Origin: a virus
Virus record (IMG/VR): IMGVR_UViG_3300025536_000012
Span: 67,496 to 131,495 of that record
DNA length: 64,000 bases
Reading direction: 5' to 3' (one strand)
How positions within the stretch are numbered: the first letter of the stretch is position 1; every line of letters begins with the position of its first letter. The position numbers and the translations under genes were made by a program. Below are positions 18,658 to 29,449 of the stretch, piece after piece. The notes under the pieces are model-generated. The model was given only the letters and a program-made list of their open reading frames with translations, did not search any database and was not told where the DNA came from.

Positions 18658-18735
18658 AGCAGGGTAGAGCAGTCCGGTAGCTCGTCAGGCTCATAACCTG
18701 AAGGTCGCGTGGTTCAAATCCCGCTCCTGCAACCA
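18658..18735 (+). tRNA. tRNA-Met (CAT), CCA encoded
   Basis: anticodon arm TCAGG-CTCATAA-CCTGA, T-loop GGTTCAAATCC, ends ..GCAACCA; 1-72 A:A mismatch. Confidence 0.55.
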
Positions 18736-18944
18736 AGTAAAATGAGATCCTTAGTGAAATGCGCCACCTTCGCGAAGCGTCAGGCCGAAAGCCTGAAGCT
18801 CGAGGGGCATTTCATGTTTGGGTCGTATCCCCTTCACTCGATTCAAACCTGGAACCCGGATACGAAGGTGACCCTGACTTAGGTTGATCTAACCTCATAG
18901 ATCCCAAGTCAGAGCCACCCTAACCAGGTGGCTTTCGACGTTTT

Positions 18945-19025
18945 GGGAGTGTTGATGCCGGTGCATCAGGCCGACTGTAAATCGGTTGCCTTTGGGCAAA
19001 TCAGGTTCGACTCCTGGCTCTCCCA
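18945..19025 (+). tRNA. tRNA-Tyr (GTA), type II
   Basis: anticodon loop CTGTAAA, long variable arm, T-loop GGTTCGACTCC, acceptor GGGAGTG/CTCTCCC. Confidence 0.55.
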
Positions 19026-19068
19026 CTAGATGTTGAATGAACGAAAACCAAGCTTCAGCCTCAATTCT

Positions 19069-19139
19069 GGGGTTGTAGCTCAATGGCAGAGCATCCGGCT
19101 TTTAACCGGTCGACTAGGGTTCGATCCCCTACAGCCCTA
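19069..19139 (+). tRNA. tRNA-Lys (TTT)
   Basis: D-arm GCTCAATGGCAGAGC, anticodon arm TCCGG-CTTTTAA-CCGGT, T-arm TAGGG-TTCGATC-CCCTA. Confidence 0.65.
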
Positions 19140-19151
19140 CTAATGTATTGA

Positions 19152-19223
19152 TCGGGACTAGCACAACTGGTTGTGCAGGGCCTCTGAAGCCCAAGGTTCT
19201 AGGTTCGAATCCTAGGTCCCGAA
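19152..19223 (+). tRNA. tRNA-Gln (CTG)
   Basis: acceptor TCGGGAC/GTCCCGA, anticodon loop CTCTGAA, T-arm TAGG-TTCGAAT-CCTA. Confidence 0.6.
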
Positions 19224-19277
19224 CTGAGCCCAACAAGATCAGTTGGGGTGAAAAACGAATAGTGACGATGACAATTC

Positions 19278-19302
19278 GCGAGGCGGTTCGCCGTCTCGCT
19301 TT
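19278..19302 (+). terminator. GC-rich hairpin with TTCG loop followed by a T-run, between two tRNAs
   Basis: GCGAGGCGG-TTCG-CCGTCTCGC then TTTG. Confidence 0.3.
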
Positions 19303-19375
19303 GCCTCGGTAGCTTACGTGGTGTAAGCGTCCCGCTGAAGACGGGAAGATTTCGGTTCGACTCCGAACTGGGGCA
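19303..19375 (+). tRNA. tRNA-Phe (GAA)
   Basis: anticodon arm TCCCG-CTGAAGA-CGGGA, T-arm TTCGG-TTCGACT-CCGAA. Confidence 0.65.
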
Positions 19376-19380
19376 CTGAT

Positions 19381-19450
19381 AGGAAGCGGTCTGGGACTAA
19401 GACGCTCTCCAAAAGCATCTAGCCGAGTTCAATTCTCGGGCTTCCTGCCA
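19381..19450 (+). tRNA. atypical tRNA-like element with encoded CCA (short, no clean anticodon arm)
   Basis: acceptor AGGAAGC/GCTTCCT plus G and CCA, T-arm CCGAG-TTCAATT-CTCGG; only 33 nt between acceptor and T-stem. Confidence 0.3.
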
Positions 19451-19500
19451 GATTAAAGAAATCAGACGATTCCTTTAAAGCTCCTCGATCACTTTAAAAT

Positions 19501-19572
19501 GCCTCCATAGCTCAATAGCAGAGCACGCCGCTCTTAACGGCACGGTTATCGGTGCAAGTCCGATTGGGGGTA
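19501..19572 (+). tRNA. tRNA-Lys (CTT)
   Basis: D-arm GCTCAATAGCAGAGC, anticodon loop CTCTTAA, T-arm ATCGG-TGCAAGT-CCGAT. Confidence 0.55.
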
Positions 19573-19577
19573 CGAAT

Positions 19578-27219: not shown

Positions 27220-27235
27220 CAAACGGTCATCGTCG

Positions 27236-27766
27236 CTATTCTTTGATCCGAGCTCGTTGGATCAAAGCAGTTCTCGTGACGATATCCTCGGGAATGGCTG
27301 GAGTGACAAACTCGCCTTCCCACTTCACGAGCTCGGTACCGGGATTGTAGTTCTGTCGCTGAGTACTCCGAAAGTATTCTTCGACGAGCTCCGTGTTTCG
27401 ACTCGCGTAGTACTCGGCGTAGTACACTCGAGAGATCTTTGCGTTGACGATACGCTTTGCGCAGTCGTAGCAAGGGATCACGTTGCTGTAGAGAACTGCT
27501 CCTTTCAGGTCGACCTTGGCCTGGTCGATAGCATTCGACTCGGCATGAATGGTACGGATACAGCTCGGAAGTCCCTCGATTTCCTTGAGCTCGTGGCCGA
27601 TCTGGTCACAGTGGGGCATTCCAGAGGCCGCTCCGTTGTAGCCTGTGGAGATAATGGTTCGGTCTTTGACCAAGACCGCTCCCACTTTCTTGCGGTCGCA
27701 TGTCGCTCTGGTTGAAAGCAGATACGCGATGCTCATGAAGTAGTCGTCCCACGATGGTCGGTTCAT
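27236..27766 (-). CDS. dCMP/cytidine deaminase (zinc-dependent)
   Basis: 'HAESNAI' H(A)E motif and 'PCYDCA' PCxxC zinc ligands. Confidence 0.8.
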   Translation of the reverse strand: MNRPSWDDYFMSIAYLLSTRATCDRKKVGAVLVKDRTIISTGYNGAASGMPHCDQIGHELKEIEGLPSCIRTIHAESNAIDQAKVDLKGAVLYSNVIPCYDCAKRIVNAKISRVYYAEYYASRNTELVEEYFRSTQRQNYNPGTELVKWEGEFVTPAIPEDIVTRTALIQRARIKE

Positions 27767-28035
27767 GCGAAAAGAACCCTTTCTTGACAGTCTGGACAGA
27801 TCTTGGTTTGAAGTACGAGAGGGAGTCCCGTCGCTTCATGTACTGGATAGGCTGGAGATCCCTTTGGGGGAATCATAAAGAACGTCTGTCCGGCGTCCAT
27901 CAAATACATGGCGTCGTCTGCTGTGTACTCGGACTCGCTCTTGGCCTTGACCTTGACGACGTGGTTTTGTTCTCCCTTCGGACACTTCTCGGTTCGAATA
28001 GCTATAACTTCGATGTCTGGTGTGTCTTCGTTCAT
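27763..28035 (-). CDS. hypothetical protein
   Basis: 90-aa ORF with 4-nt overlap to the deaminase gene. Confidence 0.4.
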   Translation of the reverse strand: MNEDTPDIEVIAIRTEKCPKGEQNHVVKVKAKSESEYTADDAMYLMDAGQTFFMIPPKGSPAYPVHEATGLPLVLQTKICPDCQERVLFA

Positions 28036-28685
28036 TCTTTCTTATTCCCTGACTTCGCGATGTACTTCTTCCAGGGGATTAACTCGCGGGTTTCCTCATT
28101 GAGAAACCCCCAATCCACCCCATCCTTGTCGACCTCTCGTTTACCGGCGATGAAGATTGTCCACAGCGGTTCCTCGATGAATGTGATCTTGTGGAAATCC
28201 TCTTTGTAGAGGTTGTTGAACCACTTCACATGATGTTCGCTGCGAGGAACTTCTGGCATGGCAATAACAGCACTTGTGCTGAGTGCTGGCCCATCGAGTC
28301 CGGCCTTCTTCATATTGTCCAGATGTATTTGGTGAAAGGCGCGATAGATCATCTCGGATGTGAGATCCAATCGTTCTTCCCTGTAACTACCTAGCAAAAC
28401 AAGACTGAAGGCTTTATCCCAGGGATGGTTATGCATCTCCTTGTCTGAGTCGGCCCGCCAGATCTTGTGCAACATGATTCGCTTGCCGAAGACCCTAGGA
28501 AACTTCACTCGAGTCATGTATTTGGTTCGTCCATTTGTGATGGTGTAGGCGGAGAAGTAGTCGTTATCTGGTAGCTTGGCGGCAACAGCCGCAACCCCCA
28601 TCAAAACCTTGTCCACCAGACGTCGTACGAATTTTCTCATCTGATTCCTTGACAGGGCTGAGTCCCATTGGCAGTGTTGTTTCAT
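28032..28685 (-). CDS. hypothetical protein
   Basis: 217-aa ORF. Confidence 0.45.
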   Translation of the reverse strand: MKQHCQWDSALSRNQMRKFVRRLVDKVLMGVAAVAAKLPDNDYFSAYTITNGRTKYMTRVKFPRVFGKRIMLHKIWRADSDKEMHNHPWDKAFSLVLLGSYREERLDLTSEMIYRAFHQIHLDNMKKAGLDGPALSTSAVIAMPEVPRSEHHVKWFNNLYKEDFHKITFIEEPLWTIFIAGKREVDKDGVDWGFLNEETRELIPWKKYIAKSGNKKE

Positions 28686-29047
28686 GCATTAGCAACACGG
28701 TTGAAGCCCGCCCCACGAAGAGCTGCGAAGCTCCTCACGTCGATACGGACCTAGTTCACTACGTCATCGTTCGAGCTGACCTCCCCATTGGGTCGCAGGT
28801 CGCTCAAGTGGTTCATGCTGCTGGAGAATCTACTCCAACGCGTGTTCCTACAAATACCGTTGCTGTGGCTCTCCACGCACGGAACCAAGACCATCTCCTC
28901 GATCTCGAATTCAAGCTCAAGTTGATGAACATAGCCCACGTGCTCATCTGCGAGTGCGATGGGGAACCCATGGCCATCGGCATCGAGCCGACCAGAGATC
29001 GTCACTCGATCAGAAAGGTGACGTCCTCACTCCCACTTGTGAAGTGA
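28649..29047 (+). CDS. peptidyl-tRNA hydrolase, PTH2 family-like
   Basis: 'YVIVRADLPIGSQVAQVVHAAGES' matches the Pth2 'vvRtDL...G.aAQ..HAa' core; start codon uncertain. Confidence 0.55.
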   Translation: MTGLSPIGSVVSCISNTVEARPTKSCEAPHVDTDLVHYVIVRADLPIGSQVAQVVHAAGESTPTRVPTNTVAVALHARNQDHLLDLEFKLKLMNIAHVLICECDGEPMAIGIEPTRDRHSIRKVTSSLPLVK

Positions 29048-29052
29048 ACCCT

Positions 29053-29125
29053 GCCTCGGTGGCCAAATGGTTAAGGCACCGTTTCGCAAGAACGGGGATT
29101 GGTGGTTCGAGTCCATCCCGAGGCT
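29053..29125 (+). tRNA. tRNA with GCA-type anticodon loop (Cys-like; C33)
   Basis: perfect acceptor GCCTCGG/CCGAGGC, anticodon arm CCGTT-TCGCAAG-AACGG, T-loop TTCGAGT. Confidence 0.45.
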
Positions 29126-29127
29126 TT

Positions 29128-29204
29128 GGAGCTGTAGTTCAACGGTAGAACATCTGGGTGCTTCGGCATCTGGAAGACGTAGTGTTCAAGTCCTGCCAGC
29201 TCCG
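29128..29204 (+). tRNA. pseudo-tRNA-like element (77 nt)
   Basis: perfect acceptor GGAGCTG/CAGCTCC and canonical D-arm GTTCAACGGTAGAAC, but no canonical anticodon or T stems; internal CATCTGG direct repeat. Confidence 0.3.
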
Positions 29205-29217
29205 CTTGACAATTTAA

Positions 29218-29289
29218 GACCGGGTAGCTCAGCGTTAGAGCATCAGGTATTTAACCTGAGGGTCGGTGGTTCAACTCCATCCCCGGTCA
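29218..29289 (+). tRNA. tRNA with TTT anticodon (Lys-like; A at position 33)
   Basis: perfect acceptor GACCGGG/CCCGGTC, anticodon arm TCAGG-TATTTAA-CCTGA, T-arm GGTGG-TTCAACT-CCATC. Confidence 0.45.
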
Positions 29290-29296
29290 CTTTTTT

Positions 29297-29369
29297 GCGC
29301 GGTTAGCTCAGTGGTAGAGCGGAAGCTTAATGAAACTTCGGGCCGTCGGTTCGATCCCGACACCGCGTT
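29297..29369 (+). tRNA. tRNA with aberrant anticodon loop containing TTAATGA
   Basis: canonical acceptor, D-arm GCTCAGTGGTAGAGC and T-arm GTCGG-TTCGATC-CCGAC; anticodon region GAAG-CTTAATGAAA-CTTC. Confidence 0.4.
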
Positions 29370-29374
29370 CGACT

Positions 29375-29449
29375 GGATCTATAGCTCAATTTGGTAGAGC
29401 ACTGAGTTAATGACCTCAGGCGTTCGGGGTTCGAGTCCCCGTGGATCCG
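29375..29449 (+). tRNA. tRNA with 8-nt anticodon loop TTAATGAC
   Basis: acceptor GGATCTA/TGGATCC, D-arm GCTCAATTTGGTAGAGC, anticodon stem CTGAG/CTCAG around an 8-nt loop, T-arm CGGGG-TTCGAGT-CCCCG. Confidence 0.45.

Follow-up and report, generated by a model that had tools for sequence, protein, structure and literature searches.

A metagenomic phage tRNA array with a predicted complete decoding set and six non-standard tRNA-like RNAs

Introduction

Why a bacteriophage should carry transfer RNA (tRNA) genes for the whole genetic code is the question raised by a 64,000-nucleotide (nt) stretch of the IMG/VR virus record IMGVR_UViG_3300025536_000012 (positions 67,496 to 131,495; this whole stretch is hereafter called the window and numbered from its first letter). 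Between positions 18658 and 29450 the window holds a dense tRNA array, which the original prediction, made by reading the letters and a list of open reading frames (ORFs), had described as an 11 kb array of more than 40 tRNA-like genes with near-complete decoding capacity. In this work the array was analysed with tRNA finders, covariance models and related phage contigs. Our findings indicate that it is, very probably, a real phage-encoded array providing a complete decoding set, accompanied by six non-standard tRNA-like RNAs. As a complete and compact set in a 212-kb phage, it offers a clean example for the debate on why phages carry tRNAs.

Identification of the tRNA genes

With ARAGORN at default settings, 40 tRNA genes were called. 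Every one is on the + strand and falls within 18658-29450, whereas the remaining 53 kb of the window yielded no call. The Rfam tRNA model (RF00005) gave 30 matches at its gathering threshold of 29 bits, with E-values down to 5e-12; its E-value mode added the genes at 24709, 27150 and 20975-21043, each above 29 bits, and the tRNA-Tyr gene matched the Sec-like model. A covariance model built from 31 of the window's own class I tRNAs (R1), run with filters off over 18000-30500, returned 51 + strand matches at E<0.01, the best match on the - strand having E=0.2. Likewise, a scan for a 7-bp acceptor stem combined with a T arm yielded 62 + strand matches in the array, compared with chance levels of 9 for the + strand outside the array (53 kb) and 18 for the full length of the - strand.

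Combining ARAGORN (default and relaxed), Rfam, R1 and synteny, the array contains 51 tRNA or tRNA-like loci within 10.8 kb, in agreement with the size and number first proposed. A standard 7-nt anticodon loop is present in 45 of them and the remaining six are non-standard. About 15 of the 45 standard genes fall under the Rfam threshold or are lost to its filters and were recovered by ARAGORN and R1; orthologues of the Rfam-subthreshold genes, which are divergent, keep anticodons and stems in related phages. The standard genes, all on the + strand, are given below with the supporting evidence (numbers beginning with L denote related metagenomic contigs, which are described in a later section).

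18658-18735: tRNA-Met(CAT), initiator-like; A1xA72 mismatch, E. coli tRNAfMet-like body, encoded ACCA (ARAGORN; Rfam 55.3 bits; orthologues)
18945-19026: tRNA-Tyr(GTA), class II (ARAGORN; Rfam Sec-like model 45.8 bits)
19069-19140: tRNA-Lys(TTT) (ARAGORN; Rfam 65.6 bits)
19152-19224: tRNA-Gln(CTG), U1-A72 (ARAGORN, Rfam)
19303-19376: tRNA-Phe(GAA) (ARAGORN, Rfam)
19381-19450: tRNA-Trp(CCA), reduced D arm, G73, encoded CCA (scan; R1 17.7 bits; synteny; missed by ARAGORN and Rfam)
19501-19573: tRNA-Lys(CTT) (ARAGORN, Rfam)
19578-19652: tRNA-Asp(GTC), G73 (ARAGORN, Rfam)
19657-19728: tRNA-Ala(GGC), G3:U70 (ARAGORN, Rfam)
19810-19894: tRNA-Ser(CGA), class II (ARAGORN; R1 22.6 bits)
19895-19978: tRNA-Ser(GCT), class II (ARAGORN)
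20173-20245: tRNA-Glu(TTC) (ARAGORN, Rfam)
20656-20726: tRNA-Ala(TGC), G3:U70, short D arm (ARAGORN -ps90; R1 27.8 bits)
20733-20806: tRNA-Pro(TGG), C1-G72 (ARAGORN, Rfam)
20806-20880: tRNA-Pro(GGG), encoded CCA (ARAGORN, Rfam)
20975-21043: tRNA-Gly(GCC), U73, atypical D arm (Rfam 32.1 bits; R1 35.7 bits; canonical L011 orthologue)
21280-21369: tRNA(TAT), nominally Ile, 90 nt, long variable arm (ARAGORN; Rfam 50.9 bits)
21374-21445: tRNA(CAT) no. 2 (Rfam 24.2 bits; R1 26.7 bits; L009, L011 and L015 orthologues, called Met by ARAGORN)
21503-21579: tRNA-Val(TAC) (ARAGORN; R1 30.9 bits)
21656-21731: tRNA-Pro(CGG) (ARAGORN, Rfam)
22318-22390: tRNA-Ile(GAT), loop CCGATAA (ARAGORN, Rfam)
22395-22472: tRNA-His(GTG), encoded G-1, C73, CCA (ARAGORN; sequence)
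22474-22545: tRNA-Gly(TCC), U73 (ARAGORN, Rfam)
22887-22960: tRNA-Thr(CGT) (ARAGORN, Rfam)
23151-23225: tRNA-Gln(TTG) (ARAGORN, Rfam)
23274-23346: tRNA-Thr(TGT) (ARAGORN -ps90; R1 40.8 bits)
23736-23810: tRNA-Asn(GTT) copy 1 (ARAGORN; R1 54.6 bits)
23814-23887: tRNA-Cys(GCA) copy 1, U73 (ARAGORN, Rfam)
23892-23966: tRNA-Asn(GTT) copy 2 (ARAGORN, Rfam)
23972-24046: tRNA-Glu(CTC) (ARAGORN, Rfam)
24229-24301: tRNA-Val(GAC), loop ATGACTC (ARAGORN, Rfam)
24422-24496: tRNA-Thr(GGT) (ARAGORN; R1 50.1 bits)
24633-24703: tRNA-Arg(ACG) (ARAGORN; Rfam 26.5 bits; R1 35.9 bits)
24709-24781: tRNA-Arg(CCG) (ARAGORN; Rfam E-value mode 47.9 bits)
25212-25281: tRNA-Arg(CCT) (ARAGORN; R1 27.8 bits)
25361-25436: tRNA-Leu(CAG), type I short variable arm, A73 (ARAGORN; Rfam 37.3 bits)
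25675-25756: tRNA-Leu(TAG), 12-nt variable region folded into a mini-hairpin with a UUCG cap (ARAGORN, Rfam)
26015-26088: tRNA-Leu(CAA), type I (ARAGORN, Rfam)
26092-26166: tRNA-Leu(TAA), type I (ARAGORN, Rfam)
26183-26257: tRNA-Leu(GAG), type I (ARAGORN, Rfam; resembles 75-nt actinobacteriophage tRNA-Leu genes)
26969-27060: tRNA-Ser(TGA), class II (ARAGORN -ps90; scan; L011 orthologue at ARAGORN default)
27064-27148: tRNA-Ser(GGA), class II, encoded CCA (ARAGORN -ps90; Rfam Sec-like model 30.2 bits)
27150-27220: tRNA-Arg(TCT) (ARAGORN; Rfam E-value mode 38.4 bits)
29053-29125: tRNA-Cys(GCA) copy 2, loop TCGCAAG (ARAGORN, Rfam)
29218-29290: tRNA-Lys(TTT) copy 2, loop TATTTAA (ARAGORN, Rfam)

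All 34 anticodon assignments made earlier by eye were recovered, 30 of them by ARAGORN at default, Ala-TGC, Ser-TGA and Ser-GGA by ARAGORN -ps90, and Gly-GCC by Rfam (32.1 bits) and R1 (35.7 bits), so that the set given by the finders is not substantially different from that of the original prediction. To this list our analysis adds the Leu tRNAs CAG, CAA, TAA and GAG, Ile-TAT, the second CAT tRNA (21374-21445), the second Lys-TTT and the second Cys-GCA, as well as Ser-CGA, Thr-TGT and Trp-CCA. The last three had not been found by eye and all of them exist. They had been suspected in five unresolved spacers, which is right for Ser-CGA (19810-19894, within 19728-19893) and wrong for Thr-TGT (23274-23346) and Trp (19381-19450), which lie elsewhere. 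With R1 and filters off, the spacers 19979-20172, 24047-24228 and 24302-24421 gave no tRNA-like match; the fifth, 24497-24632, holds no standard tRNA and is occupied by a structured RNA of 128 nt whose acceptor stem and T arm are tRNA-like. The 120-nt spacer between Val-GAC and Thr-GGT (24302-24421, + strand), in which neither a tRNA-like match nor a convincing ORF was found, is 91% identical and of equal length in L009/L001. Short spacers of 1 to 6 nt are indeed frequent, about 22 of the 50 junctions measuring 6 nt or less.

Decoding capacity and identity elements

Among the 45 standard genes, which together represent all 20 amino acids, 41 anticodons occur; CAT is found twice, and Lys, Asn and Cys each have an additional copy. 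Under standard wobble rules the 41 anticodons read all 61 sense codons, every one of which is used by the phage's own ORFs. The decoding capacity predicted from the anticodons is complete; the broad capacity claimed before holds, and the qualification "near-complete" does not. Decoding of Trp rests on one atypical gene (19381-19450). Two methionine species appear to be present, an initiator-like one at 18658, recognised by its 1x72 mismatch and its likeness to tRNAfMet, and an elongator-like CAT tRNA at 21374; the latter (21374-21445) is probably the elongator tRNA-Met (or Ile2).

The classic account of phage tRNAs is that of codon compensation, in which the array would do no more than supplement the tRNAs of codons frequent in the phage but scarce in the host. 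The phage has 52% G+C and a G+C fraction at third codon positions (GC3) of 0.60, and its codons are used fairly evenly, including AUA, UUA, AGA and AGG; even codon use at 52% G+C would mismatch a high-G+C host such as an actinobacterium, at which the tRNA-Leu genes weakly hint. However, the set is complete, including tRNAs for the commonest codons, the initiator and all isoacceptor families, and codon compensation alone leaves the altered-loop duplicates and the anticodon-less members described below unexplained. A full set in which the initiator and the elongator Met are both present speaks for independence from the host pool over a selective codon top-up, and as the whole explanation we consider codon compensation unlikely.

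The rules for identity elements are established knowledge (reviewed in PMC9976931), and the array tRNAs carry the elements expected for charging. G3:U70 is present in both Ala tRNAs, C1-G72 in all three Pro tRNAs and U1-A72 in both Gln tRNAs; tRNA-His has an encoded G-1 opposite C73, Gly and Cys have U73, Asp, Asn and Trp have G73, all Leu tRNAs have A73, and the first Met combines the 1x72 mismatch with a tRNAfMet-like body. As noted in the first reading, few genes carry an encoded CCA, namely five (initiator Met, Trp, Pro-GGG, His and Ser-GGA), and therefore the CCA-adding enzyme of the host would be needed for the others. In 41 of the 42 genes read, position 74 is C but positions 75-76 are not CA (typically CTA, CGA or CTT for 74-76); this C74 without a following CA may be a signal for 3' processing.

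A 7-nt anticodon loop with U33 and a purine at position 37 is found in 41 of the 45 standard genes, and six further loci are without a standard loop. The four exceptions are Ile-GAT, with C33 (kept in L009 and L011), Val-GAC, with T37 (a pyrimidine at 37 is kept in L001 and L009), and two second copies, Cys copy 2 with C33 (the same in L001) and Lys copy 2 with A33. The block at the end of the array (29053-29450) contains nothing except variant duplicates, one tetraloop-capped tRNA-like RNA and a pair of tRNAs whose anticodon loops have 8 nt.

Phage context and related arrays

Over 20.6 kb the window matches ena:ERZ27300258:k141_24263, a metagenomic phage contig of 212,233 bp, with 100% identity. 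The contig and the surroundings of the array encode rIIA, rIIB, ThyX-like and PARP-like proteins, DNA ligase, topoisomerase, endonuclease VII, a sigma factor, GroES and a holin, and many ORFs are without known homologues; this content points to a large tailed phage. The array thus lies in phage DNA, with all of its tRNA genes co-oriented on the + strand and clustered in 10.8 kb. The PARP-like gene (8009-9640, - strand) is kept beside rIIB in the related phages; its product, of 543 aa, combines WGR, PARP regulatory and PARP catalytic domains (Pfam 2.8e-32).

Bacterial tRNA arrays exist, and one contig with a related array (L011) was deposited within a bacterial metagenome-assembled genome (GCA_037025325.1), so that a bacterial tRNA island, or an assembly chimera of one with phage DNA, has to be considered. 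Against both, the same junctions (with the 388-aa gene and rIIA/rIIB/ThyX, and with the dCMP deaminase and 217-aa genes) occur in independent assemblies from different samples. Moreover, the window matches a 212-kb contig, the ORFs around the array either look phage-like or lack known homologues, and rRNA and bacterial housekeeping genes are absent. A non-phage origin is hardly credible on this evidence.

A megablast of the array found no DNA-level relative among 50,697 phage records, and no cultured phage is related at that level; the flanking 388-aa protein had no match in the same 50,697 records. Single-protein and profile searches of IMG/VR and a search of GTDB genomes revealed no relatives, and a scan of JGI metagenomes returned chiefly short contigs. 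Relatives were reached through a large protein index, with the 217-aa and 388-aa proteins adjoining the array as handles. Metagenomic contigs with syntenic arrays were obtained in this way, their 388-aa proteins being about 86% (L009/L010 and L001), 76% (L031), 74% (L011, with 45 ARAGORN calls), 63% (L015) and 45% (L020) identical to that of the window. Two more distant contigs (L028 and L029, 46-51% identity) have no array adjoining the marker gene. In L028, a 170-kb contig, a gene with a Cas12f1-like TNB domain (TnpB-like; 13639-15216) lies a few kb from the marker gene.

Anticodons and gene order are largely kept among the relatives, and stems change in a compensatory fashion. Gene content does vary: L011 has an Ala-CGC gene, and a Cys gene where the window has the loop-less element at 21203. 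This variation, the HNH endonuclease gene and the phage-specific insertions inside the array (128 nt at 24500-24626; 194 nt at 19979-20172), and degenerate members such as 21203-21277, without an anticodon loop, and Trp, with a reduced D arm, would be expected if the array were largely non-functional cargo, that is, an island that hitch-hikes or decays, has spread through duplication and homing endonucleases and is rich in pseudogenes. The comparison speaks against this. Order and anticodons are kept across phages in which the flanking protein is only 63-76% identical, compensatory stem changes occur even in atypical members, and identity elements are intact. Between the window and L011, furthermore, the tRNAs align, whereas the spacers mostly no longer do. 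The comparison points to selection acting on the tRNAs and not to an island in decay. We regard the cargo explanation as improbable.

The host can be inferred only ambiguously. The rIIA match with the lowest E-value is Streptomyces phage Coruscant, and the Leu genes of the window match almost only actinophage tRNA-Leu genes; taken over the array as a whole, tRNA matches divide between Mycobacterium and Caulobacter phages. An actinobacterial host is thus weakly hinted at by the Leu tRNAs and rIIA, and the mixed whole-array matches leave it uncertain.

Atypical tRNAs with a standard anticodon loop

Four of the five Leu tRNAs (25361-26257), 74-76 nt in length, combine A73 with a D stem of 3 bp and a short variable arm. 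The short variable arm is found in all five Leu tRNAs of L011 (3175-3812) and in all four of the recovered part of L001 (12836-13812); the distant L020 has Leu tRNAs with the ordinary long arm. Such Leu tRNAs are not new, as they are already annotated in actinobacteriophage arrays. In bacteria, type I tRNA-Leu genes are rare; one has been reported to be charged by Streptomyces coelicolor leucyl-tRNA synthetase (LeuRS), charging by E. coli LeuRS being incomplete (PMC6614811).

The tRNA(TAT) at 21280-21369 has a variable arm with a 5-bp stem (GCGCT/AGCGC) and an AGATC loop, and A73, and its long arm is kept in L009 (5823-5913), L011 (7185-7275) and L015 (3707-3795). A long variable arm is unusual for Ile and could affect the choice of the charging synthetase. 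Among the nematode nev-tRNAs, which are class II, there is a UAU anticodon, and they are charged with leucine (PMC3333845); the phage tRNA shares with them the UAU anticodon, the long variable arm and A73, but belongs to another domain of life and has a D arm of the ordinary class I type.

In tRNA-Trp, the D arm is GTC-TGG-GAC, with a 3-nt D loop, in both the window and L009, and the anticodon CCA, G73 and the encoded CCA are retained. The gene is canonical and syntenic in L011, L015 and L031, and the reduced form in L009 shows compensatory stem changes.

Non-standard tRNA-like RNAs

The six loci without a standard anticodon loop, all on the + strand, are the following.

21047-21193: circularly permuted tRNA-like RNA (split R1 matches, covariation)
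21203-21277: tRNA-like RNA, 6-bp stem with a 4-nt loop replacing the anticodon arm (scan; R1 19.4 bits)
24500-24626: 128-nt structured RNA (R1 partial match 24586-24626, 20.2 bits; fold z-score -3.3)
29128-29205: tRNA-like RNA, anticodon arm formed by a 9-bp stem capped by UUCG, no anticodon (Rfam 39.9 bits)
29297-29370: tRNA with 8-nt anticodon loop TTAATGAA, core AAT (ARAGORN; Rfam 50.1 bits)
29375-29450: tRNA with 8-nt anticodon loop TTAATGAC, core AAT (ARAGORN; Rfam 52.9 bits)

In the first of these, the parts of a tRNA follow one another in a permuted order: the 5' strand of a long helix (21047-21071), the T arm (21084-21100; GAAGG/TTCGACT/CCTTC), the acceptor 3' strand (21101-21107; ATTCCCC), a loop (ACCTCAC), the acceptor 5' strand (21115-21121; GGGGAAT), the D arm, an anticodon-like arm (21141-21157) and the 3' strand of the long helix (21169-21193). 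Leader and trailer thus form an interrupted helix of about 20 bp. R1 matched the element in two pieces, the T arm alone at 21080-21100 and then the 5' half of a tRNA at 21116-21169, and did the same in L011 and L009. The element is located on the - strand at about 5920-6066 in L009, 7360-7506 in L011 and 4539-4699 in L031; L015 is without it, and an exact 26-mer of it is absent from IMG/VR.

Covariation was assessed in an alignment of the four phages that have the element (the window, L009, L011 and L031). Across 42 pairs, 96.9% of the cells are standard-paired and 12 pairs are changed on both sides; the compensatory changes are located in the acceptor hairpin, the D stem, the anticodon-like stem and the closing helix. 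None of 500 shuffles matched the element in paired cells, in pairs or cells changed on both sides, or in covariation score, and 16 of 500 matched its count of further pair types. When the partners were slid by 1-3 columns, a control that keeps the relatedness of the sequences, 36-58% of cells were paired and 0-5 pairs were changed on both sides; the proposed structure, being derived from one of the aligned sequences, is favoured over the slid versions. The alignment is small, and its four sequences are related. The fold z-score is -4.4. The "anticodon" differs from phage to phage (ATT, ATG, TTA and TTT, in the loops CTATTAA, CTATGGA, CCTTAAA and CTTTTAA).

Known RNAs of related shape were considered as candidates and rejected. 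A transfer-messenger RNA (tmRNA) would have G3:U70, and the 3:70 pair is G-C; no Rfam tmRNA match was found at E<=1, and there is no conserved tag, the frames from the GCA codon differing in the window, L009 and L011. A permuted "tmRNA*" called by ARAGORN in L015 overlaps two tRNAs and was judged an artefact. For a permuted tRNA gene of the algal or archaeal kind, the bulge-helix-bulge motif is missing: where it would require two 3-nt bulges separated by 4 bp, the closing helix is interrupted by a 4x4 internal loop and by a 1x1 mismatch. Nor is the anticodon conserved.

Permuted and discontinuous tRNA genes have been reviewed (PMC4090602). In common with the two-piece tmRNA (permuted ssrA) and the permuted tRNAs of Cyanidioschyzon merolae and some archaea, the element places its acceptor 5' strand downstream of both the T arm and the acceptor 3' strand, has an acceptor stem closed by a loop that would need excision, and pairs leader with trailer in a long helix; it differs from them in having a full D arm together with an anticodon-like arm whose "anticodon" varies among phages. 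To our knowledge permuted tRNA genes have not been described in phages, and a text search of the literature found no report of them there. Conceivably, RNase P and 3' processing, acting on the neighbouring tRNAs and also on the closed acceptor loop, would yield a tRNA-shaped RNA in two pieces held together by the 20-bp helix or, after ligation, a class II tRNA.

The element at 21203-21277 has an acceptor stem, a D arm and a T arm, and lies where L011 and L015 have tRNA-Cys(GCA). The tetraloop-capped RNA at 29128-29205 is kept in L001, with three pairs changed, one of them on both sides, and in L011 (915-993) its stem is capped by GCAA. In the L001 orthologue of Lys copy 2 a GCAA tetraloop replaces the anticodon loop, with compensatory changes in the acceptor and anticodon stems; the L001 tRNA bodies of the tetraloop type lie at 9355-9424 and 9438-9515. 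The compensatory stem changes between phages suggest that these non-decoding tetraloop tRNA mimics are under selection.

The two tRNAs with 8-nt loops (29297-29370 and 29375-29450) share the sequence TTAATGA(A/C), the core common with L001 being YTAATGA; ARAGORN reads the L001 orthologue as Ile-AAT with a 7-nt loop, CTAATGA. Judging from these loops, reading of a quadruplet (as a +1 frameshift suppressor) and of a triplet, AAU, are equally possible. In the structured RNA at 24500-24626, an acceptor stem (GGCGCGA/TCGCGTC) and a T arm enclose two long hairpins, both with the self-complementary loop UUGAUCA. This phage-specific insertion occupies a site at which relatives have a spacer of 6-7 nt.

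The departures in the anticodon loops bear on a further explanation, according to which the array serves mainly in counter-defence: it would replace host tRNAs cleaved by anticodon nucleases or other tRNA-targeting immunity, the altered loops would resist cleavage and the anticodon-less RNAs would act as decoys or inhibitors. Counter-defence by phage tRNAs has published support (PMC10264068, PMC11464382, PMC11555353). Here, the conserved breaks of the U33/purine-37 rule in Ile-GAT, Val-GAC, Cys copy 2 and Lys copy 2, the terminal block 29053-29450 with its variants only, and the GCAA tetraloop in the L001 orthologue of Lys copy 2 are in its favour. On the other hand, most of the 45 genes have ordinary anticodon loops, and the loop variants could be neutral or mildly harmful drift in redundant copies. 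The conserved loop departures and the terminal block fit nuclease evasion and do not prove it; counter-defence as the main role is a possibility to be taken seriously, although we would rate it as less than probable.

More generally, we tentatively propose, well short of confidence, that this lineage keeps under selection tRNA-derived RNAs unable to decode normally, namely the permuted element (21047-21193) and the bodies with UUCG or GNRA tetraloops. If so, they would constitute a class of phage tRNA mimics that is new, serving, for instance, as decoys against defence enzymes that target tRNAs or as substrates in chemistry at the acceptor end. Should the tetraloop bodies and the permuted gene be expressed, tRNA mimicry and the discontinuous tRNA gene architectures of algae and archaea would extend to bacteriophages.

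Protein genes within the array

The array is interrupted, as first proposed, by HNH endonuclease, deoxycytidine monophosphate (dCMP) deaminase and Pth2-like genes (Pfam 1e-14, 6e-25 and 1e-5, respectively) and by small ORFs, most of which are antisense to the tRNAs.

20310-20582, + strand: small ORF, 90 aa (81 aa in the database gene call)
21732-22306, - strand: two small ORFs of 96 and about 91 aa, antisense to the array
22544-22879, - strand: small ORF, 111 aa
23346-23723, - strand: ORF, 125 aa
24791-25168, + strand: DUF6527 (BubE) family protein of 125 aa (Pfam match at the cut-off, 5e-5)
25756-26004, - strand: small ORF, 82 aa
26276-26794, + strand: HNH endonuclease, 172 aa (Pfam HNH_5 1.2e-14; phrog_16726 4e-40)
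27236-27766, - strand: dCMP deaminase, ComEB type (Pfam 6e-25; NCBIfam ComEB 2e-32)
27763-28685, - strand: 90-aa ORF and 217-aa protein (phrog_4786)
28649-29047, + strand: Pth2-like peptidyl-tRNA hydrolase domain protein (domain about 28739-29047)

For the deaminase gene (27236-27766), TadA was rejected, with a match of 9e-8 against 2e-32 for ComEB. The Pth2-like protein matches Pfam PF01981 at 1e-5 (26.2 bits, the cut-off being 23), which is weak for a single sequence, and its NCBIfam equivalog score is far under the cut-off. It has 212 homologues, many of them with PF01981, and a profile of 35 homologues matches the Pth2 structures 2zv3, 1rzw and 1q7s over the full domain with E=1e-5 to 0.02; by these matches, the product is classed as a distant Pth2 member. 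A further ORF, of 69 aa and rich in Cys and His (19978-20187, - strand), fills the 194-nt spacer between Ser-GCT and Glu-TTC. As this spacer is 5 nt long in L009 and 79 nt in L011, the 194-nt spacer with its ORF represents an insertion.

Proposed role of the array

The set is complete and not selective, with tRNAs for the commonest codons and both Met species, and therefore a self-sufficient tRNA supply is the best reading of the array. We propose that its tightly packed, co-oriented genes would be transcribed as long precursors, which ribonuclease P (RNase P) and 3' processing enzymes of the host would cut and the host CCA-adding enzyme would finish; host aminoacyl-tRNA synthetases would then charge the products. 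With its own set, the phage could keep translation going whatever the state of the host tRNA pool, a benefit that would cover codon-usage mismatch, host shut-off and tRNA cleavage by host defence nucleases. The Pth2-like hydrolase within the array would fit such a translation-maintenance module.

Several observations weigh against a self-sufficient supply in this form. A scan for consensus promoters and terminators was not enriched over shuffles, and the many interspersed ORFs on the opposite strand complicate a single-transcript model. E. coli LeuRS did not fully charge the one tested bacterial short-arm tRNA, so that charging of the Leu tRNAs would depend on the host. Finally, D arms are weak in Trp, Gly-GCC, Ala-TGC, Val-TAC and Ser-TGA, and some of these genes, or of the approximately 15 under the Rfam threshold, could be inactive.

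Comparison with known systems

The array by itself is of a well-known kind and would not surprise a specialist; the added value is in its conserved non-standard members and in the family of related arrays. With short-arm Leu, long-arm UAU, a Trp with a 3-nt D loop, tetraloop bodies and a permuted gene, the lineage offers natural experiments in tRNA architecture.

In the Xanthomonas jumbo phage XacN1, 56 tRNAs represent 20 amino acids (PMC5852040); among huge phages the number of tRNAs reaches 67 (PMC7162821). Both resemble the present case in having many clustered tRNA genes, a large genome, all 20 amino acids and tRNA sequences that differ from those of the host. In XacN1, however, the 56 genes lie in 66-kb terminal repeats of a 385-kb genome, whereas here about 45 plus 6 are packed into 10.8 kb of a 212-kb genome, and no sequence relationship between the array and XacN1 or the tRNA-rich huge phages was found beyond one 36-nt match. 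Actinobacteriophages (Streptomyces phage Peebs, Stanwilliamsviridae; cluster C/M mycobacteriophages) likewise have long one-strand tRNA arrays with small ORFs, and the annotated tRNA-Leu genes of Peebs (L030, 4793-5081) are 75-76 nt long with a short variable arm, as here; outside the tRNAs there is no DNA-level relationship between these arrays and the window. The tRNA clusters of T4 and T5 are co-transcribed and processed by host RNase P, often without an encoded CCA, and their tRNAs have a role in late translation and in escape from anticodon nucleases. These are partial sets, with 8 tRNAs in T4 and about two dozen in T5, whereas the array described here would serve the complete code.

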